A DNA stretch of 24,000 nt from Mycobacteriales bacterium (GTDB taxonomy: Bacteria > Actinomycetota > Actinomycetes > Mycobacteriales > CAJCIY01): NCBI GenBank assembly GCA_035545535.1, contig DASZYF010000155.1, positions 1 to 24,000 on the forward strand, read 5' to 3'. The translations under genes and the position numbers were made by a program. The notes below the pieces were generated by a model, which searched no databases, was not told where the DNA came from, and was given only the letters and a program-made list of their open reading frames with translations. Each line of letters begins with the position of its first letter. The first letter of the stretch is position 1. Positions 4,060 to 12,590 of this stretch are shown piece after piece.

Positions 4060-4248
4060 CCGGACGCCTGCGAGGTGAGCTGTCGGGTTCGGACGCGGGA
4101 AAGGTCGCCCGGCCGGCTCGCGCCGGCTTCACCCCTAGGACCGCCTCCCGTCGTGCTGACCGGGTCGAGATGCGGCCCGCCTGTGGTTCCCCCACTCCCG
4201 TCCTTGGGGTCGTACGCCGCGCGGCCGGGGACGGGATTGGGCGTCCGG
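4060..4248 (-). promoter_or_regulatory. ydaO/yuaA-class (c-di-AMP) riboswitch aptamer in the 5' leader of Rpf-like gene 1
   Basis: The minus strand contains CGCCCAAUCC, GGGAGUGGGGGAACCAC, CUAGGGGUGAAGCC and CCGAACCCGACAGCUCACCUCGCAGGCG. These match the conserved blocks of the ydaO motif as I remember them (CGCUUAAUC / GGGGACCCA / GGGGUGAAUC / CCGAAUCCGACAGCUAACCUCGUAAGCG). The closing helix is CCGGACGCC (4248-4240) paired with GGCGUCCGG (4068-4060). Confidence 0.85.
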
Positions 4249-5647: not shown

Positions 5648-5741
5648 CACACCGGAGAAGGTCCGCGGAAGTCGATCACATTCCCGGGCGGCCCCGAGAT
5701 GTGGCAAGACCGCTGGCCGAAAGGGCGTGCGCGGCAGCGAT

Positions 5742-5747
5742 TAGCGT
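5742..5747 (+). promoter_or_regulatory. Candidate -10 hexamer for a leaderless transcript of the four-gene operon
   Basis: TAGCGT (TANNNT) ends 8 nt before GTG 5756, and no Shine-Dalgarno precedes that GTG. The heptamer TAGCGTC is identical to the one in both Rpf-like leaders. Confidence 0.3.
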
Positions 5748-5755
5748 CACGTCTC

Positions 5756-8056
5756 GTGGGCATCCGCAGCGGCCTCGCGAACAAACGGCTGCTGCTCACC
5801 GGCACCACCGGCTTCGTCGGGGAGGCCCTGCTCGAGCGGATCCTCTCCGAGCTCCCGGACACCCGGGTCGTGCTGGTCGTGCGCCCGCAGGGCAGGAAGA
5901 GCGCCCGTGCGCGCGTCGAGGAGCAGCTCCGCACGAAGAGCGCGTTCGCCGGGCTGCGCACGCGGCTCGGTGACGACGCGCTCGTCGCCCTCCTCGACTC
6001 GCACGTGGACGTCATCGAGGGCGACCTCGGTGCGCCGCTGCCCGCGCTGCCGTCCGACCTCGACGTCGTCATCCACTGCGCCGGCGAGGTCACGTTCGAC
6101 ATGGCCATCGACGAGGCGTTCCGCGCGAACCTCCTCGGCGCGCAGAGCCTGCTCGACGCCGTGCGCGCCTCCGGGTCGACACCGCACTGGCTGCACGTCT
6201 CCACCGCGTACGTCGCCGGCCTGACGTCGGGCTGGGTGCCGGAGGCGCGGCACGCACACGAGGTCGACTGGCGGGCGGAGTGCGCCGCAGGCCTCGCGCT
6301 GCGCGACCGCGTCGATCTCGACAGCCGCGTGCCCGGCGTGCTCGGGCCGCTGCTCGACGAGGCGCGCGCGGCACAGGGCCGGGCCGGTTCGAAGGGCGTC
6401 GCCGACGAGGCCGAGCGGCTGCGCAAGCGGTGGGTGCACAAGCGCCTGGTCGAAGCCGGCTTGCAGCGCGCTCAGAGCCTCGGCTGGACCGACGCCTACA
6501 CGTTCACCAAGGCGCTCACGGAGCGCATGACCGAAGAGCTCTGCGCCGACTGGGGCGTGCCGCTCACCGTCGTGCGCCCGACCATCGTCGAGAGCGCGCT
6601 CACCACGCCGCACCCCGGCTGGATCGAGGGCTTCAAGGTCGCCGAGCCGATCATCCTGGCCTACGGGCGCGGTCAGCTGCCCGACTTCCCGGCCGCGCCG
6701 GACACGGCGATGGACATCGTCCCCGTCGACATCCTCGTCGCGGCGATGCTCGCGGCCGCGGCGACGCCCCCCGCCGTCGACGCGCCCGCGTACTACCAGG
6801 TGGGGTCGAGCGCGCGGAACCCCCTGCGGTTCCTTCAGCTGTACACGAGCGTGCGCCACTACTTCCAGCAGCACCCCATGCCCAAGCGCGAGCGCGGCAC
6901 CGCGGGCGTGCCCACGTGGCAGTTCGCGAGCGAAGCGTCGATCGAACGCAAGCTGCAGCTCGCCGAGCGCGGGCAGCGGTGGGCCGAGAAGGCCGTCGGT
7001 GCGCTGCCGCAGAGCGACCGGTCGCGGTCGTTGGTCAACAAGGTCGACGCGCAGGCCAGCGGGCTGCGCCAGGTGCGCAAGCTCGCCGACCTCTACCGCG
7101 CGTACACGCAGGCCGAGGTCGTCTACACCGACGACAACGTCGTCGCGCTGCTGCGGTCGCTCCCGGAAGCCGAGCAGCGCGACTTCCCGTTCGACGTCGC
7201 CGTCATCGACTGGCACCACTACCTCACCGAGCTGCACTGCCCGGCGGTGACGGCCGGCCTTCGGTGGCTCGATGCGATCCCGATGCCGGCGCCGAAGCCG
7301 CTGCCCGAGCTCGCCGCCCGCCCGGCCGCGACCGACGACGGTCAGGTCATCGCCGCGTTCGACCTCGACGGCACGCTCGTGAAGAGCACGGTGGTCGAGG
7401 CCTACCTCTGGACGCGCCTGGCGGATCTCGGGGGCCGCGACCGGGTGCGCGAGGTCGGAGCGGTGCTCGCGTCGCTGCCCGGCTGGATCAGGTCCGACCG
7501 CGTGAACCGCAGCGCGCTGCTGCGCTCCCTCTACCTGCGGTACGCAGGCGCCGACCTGCTCGAGCTCGAGCGGCTCGTGGACGACGACATCGCGGGTGTG
7601 GTCCTGCAACGCGTCAGCGCCGCGGCACTGCGGCGCGTCCGCGAGCACCGGGCGGCCGGTCACCGCACCGTGCTCGTCACCGGAGCGCTCGACGTGCTCA
7701 CCCGTCCGCTCGCGCCGTTGTTCGACGAGATCGCCGCAGTGCATCTGATCACCGATGCGCACGGGATCGCGACGGGTCGGCTCGCGGAGCCGCCGCTCGT
7801 CGGCGAGGCGCGTGGTGCGTGGCTGCGTCGGCGCGCGGGCGTCGCGGGCTGGGACCTCTCCGCGTCCTACGCGTACGCCGACAGCCACTCCGACCTGCCG
7901 ATGCTGCGGGCGGTCGGCCATCCGGTCGCGGTGAACCCCGACGCCGACCTGCTGCGCATCGCGAAGCGGGGCAGCTGGCCGGTCGAGACGTGGCCGGTGT
8001 CGAAGGCCATCCCGGCGATCCAGCTGCCCGAACGCACTGCATCGGTGTGGGGGTGA
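5756..8056 (+). CDS. Fusion protein: N-terminal fatty acyl-CoA/ACP reductase (NAD_binding_4 'male sterility' SDR) plus C-terminal HAD-IB (SerB-like) phosphatase
   Basis: N-terminal half: LLLTGTTGFVG (TGxxGxxG Rossmann) and GWTDAYTFTKALTE (YxxxK in the PNTYTFTKAL context typical of FARs). C-terminal half: AAFDLDGTLV (DxDGT motif I), VLVTGAL (motif II) and YADSHSDLPML (motif IV, HAD-IB style). Start set at GTG 5756, because codons 5699-5755 have low GC3 (caa, aaa, cga, tta, tca, cgt). ATG 5699 is the alternative. Confidence 0.85.
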   Translation: MGIRSGLANKRLLLTGTTGFVGEALLERILSELPDTRVVLVVRPQGRKSARARVEEQLRTKSAFAGLRTRLGDDALVALLDSHVDVIEGDLGAPLPALPSDLDVVIHCAGEVTFDMAIDEAFRANLLGAQSLLDAVRASGSTPHWLHVSTAYVAGLTSGWVPEARHAHEVDWRAECAAGLALRDRVDLDSRVPGVLGPLLDEARAAQGRAGSKGVADEAERLRKRWVHKRLVEAGLQRAQSLGWTDAYTFTKALTERMTEELCADWGVPLTVVRPTIVESALTTPHPGWIEGFKVAEPIILAYGRGQLPDFPAAPDTAMDIVPVDILVAAMLAAAATPPAVDAPAYYQVGSSARNPLRFLQLYTSVRHYFQQHPMPKRERGTAGVPTWQFASEASIERKLQLAERGQRWAEKAVGALPQSDRSRSLVNKVDAQASGLRQVRKLADLYRAYTQAEVVYTDDNVVALLRSLPEAEQRDFPFDVAVIDWHHYLTELHCPAVTAGLRWLDAIPMPAPKPLPELAARPAATDDGQVIAAFDLDGTLVKSTVVEAYLWTRLADLGGRDRVREVGAVLASLPGWIRSDRVNRSALLRSLYLRYAGADLLELERLVDDDIAGVVLQRVSAAALRRVREHRAAGHRTVLVTGALDVLTRPLAPLFDEIAAVHLITDAHGIATGRLAEPPLVGEARGAWLRRRAGVAGWDLSASYAYADSHSDLPMLRAVGHPVAVNPDADLLRIAKRGSWPVETWPVSKAIPAIQLPERTASVWG

Positions 8057-8060
8057 TCGC

Positions 8061-9224
8061 GTGAAGGCCGTCGAGGTCTACCGCTCGGTGCCGCGGTACG
8101 TCGCGACCCGGGTGCTGACGCAGCGCACGCCCCTCGCGCAGGGACTGGCCCCCGTGCGCTACGTCGACCGGCGCGAGCCGTCGCTGCCCGGTGACGGCTG
8201 GGTGCGCGTGAAGCCGCTGCTCTCGGGCATCTGCGGCAGCGACCTCGCCACCGTGAGCGGCTCGTCGTCGTTCTACTTCTCACCGCTCGTCTCGATGCCG
8301 TTCACCCCGGGCCACGAGGTGCTCGGGGAGCTCGAGGACGGCACGCGGGTCGTGCTCGACCCGGTGCTCGGCTGCGCGGCCCGCGGCCTCGACCCGTGCG
8401 CGTCGTGCGCGGCGGGTGCGACGTCGCGCTGCGACCGGGTGACGCTCGGGCACGTCTCGCCCGGCCTGCAGACCGGTTTCTGCGCCGACACCGGCGGCGG
8501 GTGGTCCGGCGGTCTGGTCGCGCACACCTCGCAGCTGCACGTCGTTCCCGGCGACCTGCCCGACGAGCGGGCTGTGCTGGCCGAGCCGCTCGCGTGCGCG
8601 GTGCACGTCGCGCGGCGCAGCGGCATCGAGAAGGACCAGAGCGTGCTCGTCGTCGGAGCGGGCGCCGTCGGCCTGCTCACGCTGCTCACCGTGCGCGCGC
8701 TCACGCCGGCCGGCCGCATCACCGCTGTCGCGAAGCACCCGAAGCAGACCGCGCTCGCCCGCGAGCTCGGCGCCGACGAGGTCGTGGGGCCGTCGGCGGT
8801 CGTGCGGGGCATCCGGCGCAGCACCCGCGCGGTCGTCGTCAGCCCGGAGCGCGGTCGCGACTACCTGCTCGGCGGCGTCGACGTGTCCATCGAGTGCTCG
8901 GGCAGCTCCACCGGGCTCGACACCGCGGTGCGCACCACGCGCGCCGGTGGCCGCGTGGTCCTCGCGGGGCTGCCGACGAGCGGTGTCGACCTGACGCCGG
9001 TCTGGTACCGCGAGCTCGAGGTCGTCGGCGCCTACGCCACGCACGCCGGAGACTTCGCGACCGCGCTCGAGCTGCTCAGCGACGAGCGCCTCTCCGGCCT
9101 GACGACGTCGTTCCACCCCCTCACGCGCTGGCGTGAGGCGATCGACGAGGCGGCCTCCGCGGGCCGGCTCGGACTGGCGAAGGTCGGCTTCGACCTGCGT
9201 GACGGTGAAAGAGGTGCCGCGTGA
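8061..9224 (+). CDS. Zn-dependent medium-chain dehydrogenase/reductase (sorbitol/threonine dehydrogenase-like)
   Basis: GICGSDL and PFTPGHEVLGE (catalytic Zn ligands), a Cys cluster GCAARGLDPCASCAAGATSRCD (structural Zn) and VLVVGAGAVGLL (NAD(P) fold). GTG 8061 lies 4 nt after the upstream stop. Confidence 0.9.
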   Translation: MKAVEVYRSVPRYVATRVLTQRTPLAQGLAPVRYVDRREPSLPGDGWVRVKPLLSGICGSDLATVSGSSSFYFSPLVSMPFTPGHEVLGELEDGTRVVLDPVLGCAARGLDPCASCAAGATSRCDRVTLGHVSPGLQTGFCADTGGGWSGGLVAHTSQLHVVPGDLPDERAVLAEPLACAVHVARRSGIEKDQSVLVVGAGAVGLLTLLTVRALTPAGRITAVAKHPKQTALARELGADEVVGPSAVVRGIRRSTRAVVVSPERGRDYLLGGVDVSIECSGSSTGLDTAVRTTRAGGRVVLAGLPTSGVDLTPVWYRELEVVGAYATHAGDFATALELLSDERLSGLTTSFHPLTRWREAIDEAASAGRLGLAKVGFDLRDGERGAA

Positions 9225-10801
9225 CCCGACCAGGCTTCGTGCTGGAGGTGGACGAGCGCACGCCGCCGCTGCTCGTGCACTCCGGTGAGAGCTTCCGCCT
9301 CGAGCGCTTCCCGCTCGGGACCCGGGTCATCTACCCCGCCGAGTCGCTGCCCGCGCTGCCTGACGTGCCCGCCGCCATCGCCGACGCGCTCGACAACCCG
9401 CTCGGCGACTCCAAGCCGTTGCGCGAGCTGCTGTTCTCCGGCATGCGCCTCACCATCGCGTTCGACGACATCAGCCTGCCCCTGCCGCCGATGCGCACGC
9501 CGGACATCCGCCAGCAGGTCATCGAGCAGGTGCTCGAGCTGGCCGCACGCGCGGGTGTCGACGACGTGCAGCTCATCAGTGCGAACGCGCTGCACCGCCG
9601 GCTGACCGCCGGCGAGCTCAAGCGCATCGTGGGGGAGCGGGTCTTCCGCTCGTTCTACCCCGAGGCGCTCGTGAACTTCGACGCCGAGGACCGCGACAAC
9701 CTCACGCACCTCGGGGTCACGCCGCACGGCGAGGACGTCGAGATCAGCAAGCGCGCCGCGGAGAGCGACCTCCTCGTCTACGTCAACGTGAACCTCGTCG
9801 CGATGGACGGCGGCCACAAGTCCACATCGATCGGCCTCGCGTCCTACAACTCACTGCGACACCACCACAACCCGCACACGATGACGCACTCGCGGTCCTT
9901 CATGGACCCGCGGCACTCCGAGATGCACAAGTCCGCATGGCGCATGGGCAAGGTGCTGCAGAGCAACGTCAAGGTCTTCCAGATCGAGACCACGTTGAAC
10001 AACGCCGCGTTCCCGTCGCAGTACGGCTTCCTCACCAAGCGCGAGTGGGAGTGGTCGGTCAAGGACCAGGCCATGGCGGTCGGGATGTCCAAGAGCATCG
10101 ACCGGCTGCCGGCGCAGCTGCGCCGCAAGGTCTTCCGCGACATCGTGGCCGACTACGGCGTCACCAGCGTGCAGGCGGGCGAGATCGAACCCGTGCACGA
10201 GCGCACGTTGCAGCACGTGCATCGCCAGCAGCTCGTCGAGGTCGAGGGTCAGACCGACGTGGTGGTGTTCGGCTTGCCCTACATAGGCCCGTACAACGTC
10301 AACAGCGTCATGAACCCGATCCTCACGATGTGCCTCGGGCTCGGCTACTTCTTCAACATGTACCGGAACAAGCCGCTCGTCCGGAAGGACGGCGCGATCA
10401 TCCTGTTCCACCCCACGCCGTGGGAGTTCAGCCAGCTGCACCACCCGAGCTACGTCGACTTCTTCGAGGAGGTGCTCACCGCGACCACCGATCCGGCGGT
10501 CATGAGCGAGCGCTTCGAGAAGCAGTACGCCGAGGACGAGTGGTACCGCCACCTGTACCGGACGAGCCACGCGTACCACGGCGTGCACCCGTTCTACATG
10601 TGGTACTGGGGCGCGCACGCGCTCGACCACGTGCAAGACGTCATCTACGTCGGTGCGGACCGGAAGTCCGTGGAGCGCATGGGCTTCCGCACCGCGTCGT
10701 CGTTGCGGGACGCGCTCGCGATGGCGAGCGGCAGCGTCGGCAGCGACCCCTCGATCACGTACCTCCACTCGCCGCCGCACATCCTCGCGGACGTGCGATG
10801 A
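9221..10801 (+). CDS. LarA-like protein (DUF2088 / lactate-racemase N-terminal domain family), 526 aa
   Basis: NALHRRLTAGEL and VAMDGGHKSTSIGLASYNSLRHHH resemble the LarA blocks GTHR..T.EE and GFSGGRKS..PG.AS...I..NH, as I recall them. GTG 9221 overlaps the upstream TGA (GTGA), with GAAAGAGG 6 nt upstream. Confidence 0.8.
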   Translation: MTRPGFVLEVDERTPPLLVHSGESFRLERFPLGTRVIYPAESLPALPDVPAAIADALDNPLGDSKPLRELLFSGMRLTIAFDDISLPLPPMRTPDIRQQVIEQVLELAARAGVDDVQLISANALHRRLTAGELKRIVGERVFRSFYPEALVNFDAEDRDNLTHLGVTPHGEDVEISKRAAESDLLVYVNVNLVAMDGGHKSTSIGLASYNSLRHHHNPHTMTHSRSFMDPRHSEMHKSAWRMGKVLQSNVKVFQIETTLNNAAFPSQYGFLTKREWEWSVKDQAMAVGMSKSIDRLPAQLRRKVFRDIVADYGVTSVQAGEIEPVHERTLQHVHRQQLVEVEGQTDVVVFGLPYIGPYNVNSVMNPILTMCLGLGYFFNMYRNKPLVRKDGAIILFHPTPWEFSQLHHPSYVDFFEEVLTATTDPAVMSERFEKQYAEDEWYRHLYRTSHAYHGVHPFYMWYWGAHALDHVQDVIYVGADRKSVERMGFRTASSLRDALAMASGSVGSDPSITYLHSPPHILADVR

Positions 10802-10805
10802 GCGC

Positions 10806-10839
10806 GGCGTCATGAGGAGCACGGCGTCATGAAGAGCAC
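10806..10839 (+). repeat. Tandem 17-nt duplication spanning the start of the acyltransferase gene
   Basis: GGCGTCATGAGGAGCAC (10806-10822) and GGCGTCATGAAGAGCAC (10823-10839) differ at one base. Copy 1 supplies GAGGAG as the Shine-Dalgarno and an ATG (10812) that opens a 6-codon ORF (MRSTAS). That ORF ends in ATGA, overlapping the real ATG at 10829. Confidence 0.85.
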
Positions 10840-11728
10840 CGTCGCGCAGCTCGCGCGCGACTTCCGCTGGGGCCACCGCCCGGCGGTCCCGCGCGACGCG
10901 GTGCCGCACATCAAGGCGGCGAAGGCGACCGAGTTCCCCACCGCGTGGGCGCGCACGCCCGCGGCGCGGGCCTTCCGCACGGTCGCGCAGGACGTCGGGC
11001 TCGCCGCGCTCATCAAGGCCGAGGTGAAGCTCGTCGTCACCGGCCGCGACCGGCTGGCTGCGCTGGGCGAGCAGCCGTGCGTCATCGTCTGCAACCACAG
11101 CTCGCACCTGGACACGGCCGCGCTGATCTGCGCGCTGCCGCCGGAGTGGCGCCGGCGCACCGCGGTCGCGGCGGCGGCGGACTACTTCTTCGATGCGTGG
11201 TGGCGTGCGGTCGGCACCGCGCTGGTGTTCGGCACCGTGCCCATCGAGCGGCGCGGCGGCGTGCCGTCGCAGAAGCCGGGCGAGCTGCTGGACGACGGCT
11301 GGAACGTCGTGGTCTTCCCCGAGGGGACGCGTTCACCGGACGGCTGGATGCACGAGTGGAAGACCGGCGCCGCCCGGCTCGCCATCGACCACGGCGTGCC
11401 GGTGCTGCCGGTGGCGATCCGCGGTACGTTCGCCGCGATGCCGCGCGGGCGCTCGTGGCCCAAGCCGGGCCGCCCGCCCGTGCACATCCGGTTCGGCCGT
11501 CCGCTCGCACCGGGCCGCGACGAGGACCCGAAGGCGCTGCTCGGCCGGATGCGCGAGGAGCTGGCCCGGGTCGTCGACGAGGACACGTCCGGCTGGTACG
11601 CGTCGCTGCGCAAGCAGGCCGAGGGCCGGACGCCCGACCCCGCCGGCCCCGAAGCGTCCCGGTGGCGCCGCACCTGGGACGCCAGCGCGCCCCCGGTCAA
11701 GCTCGACCGAGGGCGCGTCTGGAAGTAG
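10829..11728 (+). CDS. PlsC/LPLAT-family acyltransferase (1-acyl-sn-glycerol-3-phosphate acyltransferase-like)
   Basis: VCNHSSHLD (HX4D catalytic motif), VVFPEGTRS (motif III) and VPVLPVAIRG (motif IV). ATG 10829 has GAGGAG 8 nt upstream. Confidence 0.9.
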   Translation: MKSTVAQLARDFRWGHRPAVPRDAVPHIKAAKATEFPTAWARTPAARAFRTVAQDVGLAALIKAEVKLVVTGRDRLAALGEQPCVIVCNHSSHLDTAALICALPPEWRRRTAVAAAADYFFDAWWRAVGTALVFGTVPIERRGGVPSQKPGELLDDGWNVVVFPEGTRSPDGWMHEWKTGAARLAIDHGVPVLPVAIRGTFAAMPRGRSWPKPGRPPVHIRFGRPLAPGRDEDPKALLGRMREELARVVDEDTSGWYASLRKQAEGRTPDPAGPEASRWRRTWDASAPPVKLDRGRVWK

Positions 11729-11808: not shown

Positions 11809-12303
11809 TCAGCTCAGGCCGAGGTAGCGCGAGCAGGCCGGCCACGGCTGCCAGCCGCGCTGCGCGTGCAGGCGGACGACGGCCTGGTCCTGCTTCCACG
11901 CCGGAGCGTCCGACGCGACGCCCGCGTAGCCGAGGCCGCGCCAGGTGCCGTAGTCGAACTGGTAGGCGCCGTAGAAGCCGTTGCCGGTGTTGGTGCGGTA
12001 GTTGCCACCCGACTCGCAGCCGCGCAGCGCGCGCATCGGCTTCACCATCGACGCCGGGACGACGAAGTGGTGGGCCTTGCGCGCGTGCCGGCGCTTGGCC
12101 TTGTGACGGGTCGCCGGCTTGGCGGCGGGCTTGGCAGCAGGCGCCGCCGCGGTGGTGCTCGCGGCGTTCGTCGTCGCTGCGGTGTGGGTTGCCCCGAACG
12201 CGTCGGCCGGCGAGACCGTCAGCGCTGCCGCTGACAGGGCCGCGGCCGCCGCGAGCGACGGGCGGATGCGGGCGCGCAGAGGCGCGCCGGTGTTCCGGTG
12301 CAC
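11809..12303 (-). CDS. Secreted Rpf-like (transglycosylase-like domain) muralytic protein, copy 2
   Basis: LRGCESGGNYRTNTGNGFYGAYQFDYGTWRGLGY...WPAC is paralogous to copy 1. It has a signal-like N-terminus (RPSLAAAAALSAAALTVSPADA) and an Ala/Lys/Arg-rich linker. Start set at GTG 12303-12301, with GGGAG 7 nt upstream. The 12304-12582 part of the tracked ORF runs through the riboswitch. Confidence 0.85.
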   Translation of the reverse strand: MHRNTGAPLRARIRPSLAAAAALSAAALTVSPADAFGATHTAATTNAASTTAAAPAAKPAAKPATRHKAKRRHARKAHHFVVPASMVKPMRALRGCESGGNYRTNTGNGFYGAYQFDYGTWRGLGYAGVASDAPAWKQDQAVVRLHAQRGWQPWPACSRYLGLS

Positions 12304-12312
12304 AGCAGATCT

Positions 12313-12479
12313 CCCGCACGCCTGCGAGGTGAGCTGTCGGGTTCGGGCTGGGATTCGCCCGGCCACATCTGTGGCTTCACCCCGAGGCTCGCAACCTTCG
12401 CGAGCCGGGAAGTGGTTCCCCCGCTCCCGCCCCCTGGGTCGTGATGGCTGGCGCCCTGGGACGGGACTCGGCGAGCGGG
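12313..12479 (-). promoter_or_regulatory. ydaO/yuaA-class (c-di-AMP) riboswitch aptamer in the 5' leader of Rpf-like gene 2
   Basis: The minus strand contains CGCCGAGUCC, GGGAGCGGGGGAACCAC, CUCGGGGUGAAGCC and CCGAACCCGACAGCUCACCUCGCAGGCG. The last 28 nt are identical to copy 1. The closing helix is CCCGCUCGCC (12479-12470) paired with GGCGUGCGGG (12322-12313), 10 bp with one U-U mismatch. Confidence 0.85.
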
Positions 12480-12515
12480 GCCAGCCGCACCGGCCACTTC
12501 GCCGGTACGGGAACG

Positions 12516-12546
12516 ACGCTAGCCCGCAGCAAGCACCCCCGGGCAA
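12516..12546 (-). promoter_or_regulatory. Putative promoter of the riboswitch / Rpf-like 2 transcript
   Basis: Minus strand: TTGCCC (12546-12541), 19 nt, then TAGCGT (12521-12516). This has the same geometry and the same TAGCGTC heptamer as copy 1. Unverified. Confidence 0.3.
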
Positions 12547-12574
12547 GCGGTGGAGATCAGGTTCACAGACGCCG

Positions 12575-12590
12575 TGTGACAACCGTCACA
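12575..12590. promoter_or_regulatory. CRP/GlxR-type operator, perfect TGTGA-N6-TCACA
   Basis: TGTGAcaaccgTCACA, extendable to GTGTGAC-N4-GTCACAC (12574-12591). It lies in the divergent region between the Rpf-like 2 leader and hemW. Confidence 0.55.

Follow-up and report, generated by a model that had tools for sequence, protein, structure and literature searches.

A LarA homologue of Group 14 with a probable role in lipid synthesis, encoded in an actinobacterial gene cassette that resembles the elb ether-lipid operon

A stretch of 24,000 nucleotides from a Mycobacteriales bacterium (assembly GCA_035545535.1, contig DASZYF010000155.1, positions 1 to 24,000; hereafter the window) encodes a homologue of the lactate racemase LarA, referred to below as LarAH. 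The protein is a further member of a published and named LarA group whose function is unsolved, and the features of that family are not new. Our reading is that LarAH is an enzyme that depends on the nickel-pincer nucleotide (NPN), transfers hydride with the help of a single base and acts on a non-carboxylate glycerolipid precursor, probably in the synthesis of alkyl-ether lipids; we put the probability of this reading at roughly 0.6. New here are comparative evidence that points to NPN dependence and the apparent homology, by way of ElbC, of the surrounding gene cassette to the elb operon of Myxococcus xanthus. Two puzzles are joined in this way, namely the role of the single-histidine LarA Groups 14-16 and the formation of the alkyl ether bond by the ElbD-dependent route, and both fields are offered a candidate: a nickel-dependent step in ether-lipid synthesis.

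The LarA homologue and its family

The gene encoding LarAH was located as follows.

9221..10801, forward strand: LarA homologue of Group 14 (NF052592, LarAH14/15/16), 526 amino acids, GTG start

The same open reading frame, with the same length of product, had been delimited in a first-pass annotation of the window. Its start codon overlaps the stop codon of the dehydrogenase gene upstream (GTGA), and the N-terminus, M-T-RPGFVLEVDERTPP, is consistent with the N-termini of 79 orthologues (M/V-[ST]-RPGFVLEVDERTPP). On the NCBIfam model NF052592 ('NPN-dependent hydroxyacid isomerase, LarAH14/15/16 family'; curated cutoff 740 bits) the protein scored 896.9 bits over model positions 1-520/520, and the Pfam domain Lar_N was found with 129.7 bits (cutoff 23.3) and an E value of 1.1e-37. 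Its scores on the models of the characterised racemases stayed below the respective cutoffs: 73 vs 460 for NF033504 (LarA), 77.5 vs 500 for NF052593, and 77 vs 540 for NF052525.

An AlphaFold2 model of LarAH, made with 37 orthologues in the input, had a pLDDT of 91.6 and a pTM of 0.91. When this model was searched with Foldseek, all significant PDB matches (19/19) belonged to the LarA family, the top ones being the single-histidine enzymes 9Q3K (9q3k_A) and 9Q3J (TM 0.76/0.83). The Lar_N domain and the two-domain LarA fold, as seen with Pfam, in the AlphaFold2 model and in the PDB fold matches, place LarAH in the LarA superfamily; the full-length match to NF052592, the residue signature and the gene context place it in Group 14. 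Judged by the two histidines, the carboxylate site and the model cutoff, it falls outside the canonical racemases and epimerases of 2-hydroxy acids.

Active-site residues

Residues were mapped by sequence, using BLASTP against LarA of Lactobacillus plantarum (lp_0104, from the supplement of Desguin 2020) and HMMER against solved LarA-family structures. The two methods yielded an identical residue map, and conservation was scored in 37 aligned orthologues. The relevant segments are listed here.

9467..9478, forward strand: D83-I-S-L86 (BLASTP against L. plantarum LarA; HMMER against 9q2u and 6d6z)
9593..9595, forward strand: His125, equivalent of the catalytic His108, the sole acid/base histidine kept (BLASTP, HMMER)
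9779..9817, forward strand: shortened loop Y187-VNVNLVAMDGG-H199, where LarA has its His174-Phe-Phe loop (BLASTP, HMMER)
9818..9820, forward strand: Lys200, equivalent of Lys184, the thioamide tether of the nickel-pincer nucleotide (BLASTP, HMMER; invariant in orthologues)
9866..9868, forward strand: His216, equivalent of the nickel-coordinating His200, third histidine of HHH (BLASTP, HMMER)
10289..10318, forward strand: invariant loop P357-YNVNSVMN-P366, counterpart of LarA helix alpha-11 with Tyr294/Gln295/Lys298 (invariant columns)

Asp83 is the counterpart of LarA Asp72 (cofactor ribose) and stands, like D82 and S85, in an invariant column. His216 lies 16 residues past Lys200, the spacing that is also seen in LarA, and H215, H216 and N217 are invariant, as is the H125-R126-R127 block. 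Substitutions at these positions occur in more distant relatives: H125 is replaced by Asn or Ser in variants that are LarC-less or diverged, and Lys200 by Gly or Ala in a Frankia genus without LarC. The first-pass annotation had matched the codon at 9593-9595 with His108, the codon at 9818-9820 with the cofactor-tethering lysine and the HHH run with the nickel-binding His200, all of which agree with the present map. The comparison with LarA by alignment and predicted structure that it had proposed yielded the LarA fold, with the lysine and nickel-histidine positions present and not all catalytic residues kept.

Its observation that the second catalytic histidine is missing ahead of the lysine was also borne out. 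The loop (YVNVNLVAMDGGHK) is 4 residues shorter than that of LarA, and no histidine occurs within the VNVNLVAMDGG stretch after Y187. Both BLASTP and HMMER set Asn191 opposite His174, a position that is a gap in the published Group 14 alignment; Y187 and N189 are invariant in the 37 orthologues, and N191 is kept in at least 80% of 81 sequences. One further change had escaped notice: Leu86 occupies the position of Arg75, which in LarA contacts the cofactor phosphate and the substrate carboxylate. The published Group 14 row (S/-/M/N for Y294/Q295/V297/K298), carried over to LarAH, adds a deletion of Gln295 and Asn365 in place of Lys298. That row reads D, I/L, H, gap, gap, L, K, H...gap...N for D72 R75 H108 H174 F175 F176 K184 H200...Q295...K298 (PMC7583248). 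Groups 14 and 15 are without His174, and Group 17 has Asn at that position (Gatreddi et al. 2025, PMC12611868). The protein had been presented as unusual; in fact it was already on record that His174 is missing, that LarAH14 is inactive and that the gene context is of a lipid type (PMC7583248, PMC12611868).

Residues 357-360 (PYNV; 10289-10300) form the sole segment of the AlphaFold2 model with a pLDDT below 50, and they are invariant. Going by the model, this stretch is a strictly conserved and apparently mobile loop at the position of the substrate-binding helix of LarA.

The alignments show that LarAH keeps the residues predicted to hold the cofactor (Asp83, Lys200, His216) together with one putative catalytic histidine (His125), and that the counterparts of the second catalytic histidine and of the three substrate-carboxylate residues of LarA are lacking. 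These residues bear directly on the idea that LarAH racemises or epimerises a 2-hydroxy acid with NPN in the ordinary way, in line with the 'hydroxyacid isomerase' of its NCBIfam name, and that its substrate happens to lie outside the assayed set. Every characterised member of the LarA superfamily inverts C2 of a 2-hydroxy acid, and the cofactor-binding residues of LarAH are intact. However, His174 is absent, the positions of Arg75, Gln295 and Lys298 hold Leu, a deletion and Asn, the score on the LarA model is far under its cutoff, and the 72.5% identical LarAH14 was inactive on all seven substrates offered. The conserved neighbours, moreover, are lipid enzymes and not enzymes of acids or sugar acids. 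We consider an ordinary racemase highly improbable, and infer that LarAH does not racemise 2-hydroxy acids.

The gene cassette and the elb operon

LarAH is encoded by the third gene of a four-gene cassette, the other members of which are given below.

5699..8056, forward strand: FAR::HAD-IB fusion, start at ATG 5699 or GTG 5756
8061..9224, forward strand: Zn-dependent medium-chain dehydrogenase, polyol/threonine-dehydrogenase-like (Pfam ADH_N, ADH_zinc_N)
10829..11728, forward strand: PlsC/AGPAT-type acyltransferase with an H-X4-D motif (NHSSHLD; Pfam Acyltransferase 7.8e-25; TIGR00530)

The first protein consists of a fatty acyl-CoA/ACP reductase (FAR) domain fused to a SerB-like HAD-IB phosphatase (Pfam NAD_binding_4 7.7e-45, Sterile 3.4e-09 and HAD 1.1e-27; NCBIfam TIGR01490, HAD-IB). 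The dehydrogenase (ADH) weakly resembles L-idonate 5-dehydrogenase, threonine 3-dehydrogenase and scyllo-inosose dehydrogenase, with NCBIfam scores far under the cutoffs. Adjoining genes overlap by 4 nucleotides or are separated by gaps of 4-27 nucleotides.

Conservation of the cassette extends over Actinomycetota, where it was followed in 80 related loci from Frankia relatives, Kribbella, Nocardioides, Micromonospora, Actinomadura, Thermomonospora, Jiangellaceae and Acidimicrobiales. The acyltransferase was found near LarAH in 79/80 of these loci, the ADH in 78/80, the HAD in 76/80 and the FAR in 74/80. Wherever the contig permits, the four genes stand in the same order, the cases in which FAR or HAD was missed being contig ends. 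LarAH is the best-conserved product of the cassette, with 64-74% identity vs 37-62% for the other three. The published context of Group 14 agrees with this picture, COG0204, COG0560 and COG1063 being present in 88% of its members; that of Group 15 consists of two NAD-epimerase genes, a HAD phosphatase and a long-chain acyl-CoA synthetase (PMC7583248 supplement).

A cassette of related composition is known from M. xanthus. The ElbD-dependent, AGPS-independent route to ether lipids is the predominant one in myxobacteria. According to a review, from which the descriptions of the elb genes are taken, it has yet to be established how a fatty acid is converted to alkyl ether lipid (PMC9131029). In the elb operon, elbA and elbE encode NAD-dependent epimerase/dehydratase proteins and elbB a HAD phosphohydrolase, and the function of elbC is unknown. 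The elbD product is a multidomain FAR-ACS-ACP-AGPAT enzyme, in which ACS and ACP stand for acyl-CoA synthetase and acyl carrier protein, and its disruption strongly lowers the alkyl and vinyl ether lipids (PMC9131029).

MXAN_1529 of M. xanthus is listed as a Group 15 protein (Desguin 2020 dataset, PMC7583248). It scored 848.8 bits on NF052592 and is 48-50% identical to LarAH over the full length. The gene order at its locus is an Epimerase protein of 326 amino acids, a HAD protein of 221, the Lar_N protein of 536, a protein of 1470 and a second Epimerase protein of 342; the 1470-residue protein combines NAD_binding_4, Sterile, AMP-binding, PP-binding and Acyltransferase domains. From this gene order and the description in the review, MXAN_1529 is identified here as the putative ElbC. 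The order HAD / Lar_N / ElbD / Epimerase was also found on two more Myxococcota contigs.

When the window proteins were compared with the M. xanthus locus by tblastn, LarAH matched with 48% identity (E 8e-167). The window FAR matched the N-terminus of ElbD (28%, E 4e-48), the HAD matched ElbB (33%, E 1e-25) and the acyltransferase matched the C-terminal AGPAT domain of ElbD (30%, E 4e-25). Homologues of ElbC, ElbB, ElbD-FAR and ElbD-AGPAT are clustered in the window. The ADH had no counterpart in the elb operon in this tblastn search of the M. xanthus locus, where the SDR-type ElbA and ElbE fill the reductase role. Module by module, the cassette is, as judged from these matches, homologous to the elbB-elbC-elbD part of the elb operon. 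The Group 14 cassette of actinobacteria is thus an elb operon taken apart, and it is often physically linked to larB/larC/larE. Since its conserved neighbours match the elb operon, LarAH may act in lipid synthesis and not as a lactate-type racemase.

The literature offered little on this connection. No paper was found that contains both 'ElbD' and 'lactate racemase', although the original elb paper may mention a DUF2088 domain. Searches for literature tying ether lipids to the nickel-pincer cofactor, for an operon of DUF2088, FAR and acyltransferase, and for LarAH14/16/17 returned nothing relevant.

Supply of the cofactor

The first-pass annotation had found no larB, larC or larE in the window, which is correct, and had attached meaning to their absence, which proved to be a local accident of the source genome: the whole-genome search that it had suggested retrieved all three on other contigs. 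The genome measures 4.09 Mb in 235 contigs, is 88% complete and encodes LarAH as its only Lar_N protein. Above the curated cutoffs, LarB was found with 249 bits, LarE with 259.5 bits and LarC in two parts.

Contig C198 (L007:1450-2625): LarB with the C-terminal part of LarC joined behind it, 392 amino acids, LarC profile positions 213-374
Contig C161 (L002:1477-2217): N-terminal part of LarC, separate gene for 247 amino acids, LarC profile positions 2-235
Contig C48: LarE, score above the curated cutoff

A cofactor-less LarAH for want of NPN genes is ruled out by these three contigs. LarC matches confined to the N-terminal part also came up elsewhere in the class (G035, G081, G152).

In 12/80 of the related loci, larB, larC and larE lie at most 6 kb from the cassette. 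The NCBIfam curated cutoffs confirmed LarB, LarC and LarE at three linked loci, from Micromonospora and two uncultured lineages. The FAR::HAD gene of Micromonospora, Actinomadura sp. DC4 and Actinoallomurus is preceded, directly or at a short distance, by a larE gene that points the same way; the spacing is 117 nucleotides in the Micromonospora locus L071. At locus L045, larE-larB-larC follow the acyltransferase gene on the same strand. At four loci of Actinomadura and Thermomonospora (L070, L072, L076, L078), tblastn gave two distinct LarB-like matches in the stretch from larC to larE beside the cassette; larB could be duplicated or split there.

Among 251 genomes sampled evenly from the class, LarC was present in 34/34 of the genomes with a LarAH above the cutoff vs 65/217 of the remaining ones, counts that are not phylogenetically independent, the loss of LarC and of the lysine in Frankia being a single event. 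Loss of the cofactor residues tracks loss of LarC, which is the pattern to be expected if these residues serve the cofactor. Seen comparatively, the Group 14 proteins bear the mark of a genuine NPN site, in that their cofactor residues appear to stand or fall with the cofactor pathway. Of the two readings that the first-pass annotation had left side by side, the altered, one-base cofactor enzyme is well supported by the invariance of the NPN residues in the 37 orthologues, by larB, larC and larE in the genome, by the 12 linked loci and by the LarC count; the other, a non-catalytic binding protein, is disfavoured for the window protein.

Frankia and other diverged variants

The Frankia family, with 56 genomes, was identified by the sequence identity of two of its members to FRAAL3757 and Francci3_2278. 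Forty-two genomes have LarAH of the Group 14 type, and LarC was found in 41/42, the exception being a genome of 63% completeness. One Frankia genus, with 14 genomes, has a diverged LarAH and no LarC, save for a relic of 46 residues and 35 bits in one of them. Full-length LarAH copies of this genus scored 541-624 bits on NF052592, below its cutoff. In these proteins Lys200 is changed to Gly or Ala, His215 to Val and, in 2/3, His125 to Asn. The variants correspond to the published Group 16: the loci L089, L090 and L091 (genomes G181, G102 and G218) contain sequence blocks identical to Francci3_2278 and FRAAL3757. Their ratio of nonsynonymous to synonymous substitution rates (dN/dS) of ~0.35 suggests purifying selection, a value that is only indicative since dS is compressed by the extreme G+C bias at third codon positions (GC3). 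Group 16 LarAH seems to descend from an NPN enzyme, to have become cofactor-less and to have been kept for another role.

A second, independent variant was seen at locus L092 (G017:C20), where the cassette consists of three genes, the ADH being absent, and where Asp83, His125, Lys200 and His216 are missing from the LarAH (42% identity). At locus L093 (G236:C7:46000-58000), FAR, HAD, ADH and LarAH are fragmented by frame changes and one TGA, and the acyltransferase is intact; this cassette appears, from its reading frames, to be decaying as a unit.

Such variants are what would be expected if LarAH were a non-catalytic subunit in general, whether as a pseudoenzyme, as a scaffold or as a partner of the FAR/acyltransferase machinery that binds lipid, with active-site residues kept by inertia. 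Group 16 and the G017 protein have lost Lys200 and His125 or His215, the latter protein also Asp83 and His216, within intact open reading frames. They retain the C-terminal motifs REWEW, HP, WY..R and H456, and purifying selection appears to persist in the cofactor-less copies. For these variants a non-catalytic role looks right as far as their residues tell. For the window protein and its orthologues it is distinctly unlikely: D83, H125, K200, H215 and H216 are invariant in the aligned orthologues, LarAH is the most conserved product of the cassette, larB, larC and larE are adjacent in 12 loci, and the residues are lost where LarC is lost.

Proposed function and mechanism

The preferred reading, a single-base NPN enzyme acting on a glycerolipid precursor, can be put in chemical terms. 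The tethered NPN would take a hydride from the carbinol carbon of an intermediate derived from glycerol or glycerol phosphate, and His125 would take the proton. As no second base stands on the other face, the hydride would not be returned to invert the centre. It may instead be given back after a step at a neighbouring atom, or passed to a neighbouring carbon, in a redox-neutral isomerisation, and the product of the pathway would be an alkyl (ether) glycerolipid. The glycerol-derived substrates that the first-pass annotation had suggested for activity screens are in line with the evidence.

A full route, in which each module has a part, can be sketched only speculatively. FAR might yield a fatty aldehyde that forms a hemiacetal with glycerol-3-phosphate; the ElbD-dependent species that was detected in M. 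xanthus is an aldehyde and not an alcohol. LarAH could then transfer the hydride at glycerol C2 onto the carbon that came from the aldehyde; water would be lost and 1-O-alkyl-dihydroxyacetone phosphate formed. The ketone of this compound might be reduced by the ADH, or by ElbE/ElbA in myxobacteria, after which the acyltransferase could acylate sn-2 and the HAD domain could remove the phosphate. On the most far-reaching reading, ElbC and proteins of the LarAH14 type would supply the catalyst that the AGPS-independent route to bacterial ether lipids lacks, with an NPN hydride shuttle making the ether bond redox-neutrally, a proposal that we advance tentatively and regard as rather unlikely.

Besides the dependence among the LarC counts, several points weigh against an NPN-dependent role of LarAH in ether-lipid synthesis. 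The main counter-evidence to a catalytic, essential role is that Frankia retains the cassette with a cofactor-less protein: in Group 16 all four genes are intact despite the loss of the cofactor residues and of LarC, so the cassette can persist without NPN chemistry. Other users of NPN are known, the NphT-type aldo-keto reductases (PMC13524815), and LarC in a genome is for that reason no proof of its use by LarAH. AMP-binding, PP-binding and Epimerase-family genes were sought in the cassette and none was found, and the cassette has a Zn-dependent ADH where elb has the SDR-type ElbA and ElbE. For Frankia, Kribbella, Nocardioides, Micromonospora and Actinomadura, a limited literature search brought up no mention of ether lipids. 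No separate elbC knockout was found in the literature, and the effect of an elbB insertion has been ascribed to polarity (PMC9131029).

Some of these points can be accommodated if LarAH is NPN-dependent and lipid-linked and serves another pathway, be it the conversion of glycerol-3-phosphate to glycerol-1-phosphate via dihydroxyacetone phosphate, the formation of monoacylglycerol or wax-type neutral lipids, or that of long-chain diol lipids. The operon evidence applies to such a pathway equally. Pairs of HAD-IB and PlsC domains give monoacylglycerol from glycerol-3-phosphate in plant GPAT4/6. The cassette is also without the ACS and ACP domains of ElbD and has a reductase of a different family, and the limited literature search for ether lipids in the carrier genera came out negative. 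On the other side, 4/4 shared modules are homologous to those of elb, the disruption of which lowers both alkyl and vinyl ether lipids in M. xanthus, and racemisation of glycerol-3-phosphate to glycerol-1-phosphate normally needs two bases, for which LarAH has one histidine. Another lipid pathway is considered doubtful on balance.

If the hydride-shuttle proposal is true, the nickel-pincer cofactor would for the first time have a part in lipid biosynthesis, and the LarA fold would for the first time host chemistry other than racemisation; many soil Actinomycetota, among them Frankia relatives, Kribbella, Nocardioides, Micromonospora, Actinomadura and Acidimicrobiales, would make ether lipids. 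If the reading of LarAH as an ether-lipid enzyme is right, nickel-pincer chemistry would reach past the inversion of 2-hydroxy acids, and the list of likely bacterial sources of the alkyl glycerol ether biomarkers of soils would become longer. If it is wrong, the gene stays an ordinary member of a named family.

Surroundings of the cassette in the window

The genes that flank the cassette in the window are not conserved with it: lepA, the MFS gene, the Rpf-like genes and hemW were never co-located with it in the 80 loci. A promoter and terminator scan of the operon region gave nothing above chance. Two cyclic di-AMP (ydaO-type) riboswitch aptamers were detected at the Rfam gathering level, both on the reverse strand, and they bracket the MFS gene and the four-gene operon.

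4068-4212, reverse strand: ydaO-type aptamer, 41.8 bits
12304-12463, reverse strand: ydaO-type aptamer, 60.8 bits

The latter lies inside the 5' end of a called reverse-strand open reading frame (11809-12582; transglycosylase-like, Rpf-type domain) and would be upstream of that gene if its start were shorter.

The LarAH gene has a lower G+C content (0.63-0.65) than its surroundings (0.73-0.77), and the earlier hand counts of 35/60 for 9961-10020 and 47/60 for 8401-8460 were exact. The dip is confined to codon positions 1 and 2, GC3 being 0.96 as in the neighbouring genes, which rules out a foreign origin of the low-G+C core. Since GC3 equals that of the neighbours, the dip reflects a constrained protein rich in His, Asn, Tyr, Met and Phe and not foreign DNA, much as the first-pass annotation had proposed.

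Comparison with known systems

LarA of L. plantarum is a protein of 424 amino acids, some 100 fewer than LarAH has, and its deposited, tagged PDB chains have 433 residues. The two proteins have the same fold (5HUQ; Foldseek E 1.7e-23), and the equivalents of D72, H108, K184 and H200 are common to both. Their sequence identity is 28% and is restricted to the N-terminal domain. With His174, Arg75, Gln295 and Lys298 all present, LarA uses two bases to racemise lactate in a proton-coupled hydride transfer.

Among solved structures, the best sequence match to LarAH was obtained with the Group 17 proteins LarA-Sp and LarA-Bw (9Q2U/9Q3K and 9Q3J; E 1.3e-31). These proteins of about 500 amino acids have the equivalents of His108, Lys184, His200 and Asp72 and are without His174, as is LarAH. 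Holo LarA-Sp demonstrates that NPN can be carried by a single-histidine LarAH (Gatreddi et al. 2025). The identity to LarAH is 18-22%, and the differences are considerable: LarA-Sp and LarA-Bw have an invariant Asn in a full-length loop, a Lys at the position of Arg75 and a glycolytic or carbohydrate context, and they form octamers, whereas LarAH has a short loop, a Leu and a lipid context.

The Group 16 proteins of Frankia (FRAAL3757, Francci3_2278) are encoded in the same cassette and are 49-55% identical to LarAH; they differ in having lost the cofactor residues. Of Groups 14-16, the one purified member is LarAH14 of Frankia sp. EAN1pec (Franean1_4168, UniProt A8L878), 72.5% identical over 397 aligned residues. 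It is an orthologue from another genus that has the residue signature, length class, gene context and NF052592 match in common with LarAH. LarAH14 was purified in 2020 as a soluble protein and, with NPN added, was inactive in seven racemase/epimerase assays, covering the racemisation of lactate, hydroxyisovalerate, hydroxyisocaproate, malate, hydroxyglutarate and phenyllactate and the epimerisation of gluconate (PMC7583248).

ElbC, from the elbA-E operon (MIBiG BGC0000871; Group 15), resembles LarAH in that the lysine and both cofactor histidines are kept and His174 is missing. The FAR and AGPAT modules of the elb system are joined in the 1470-residue ElbD, which adds acyl-CoA synthetase and ACP domains. 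As with LarAH in the window, ElbC is flanked by HAD phosphatase, FAR and AGPAT modules.

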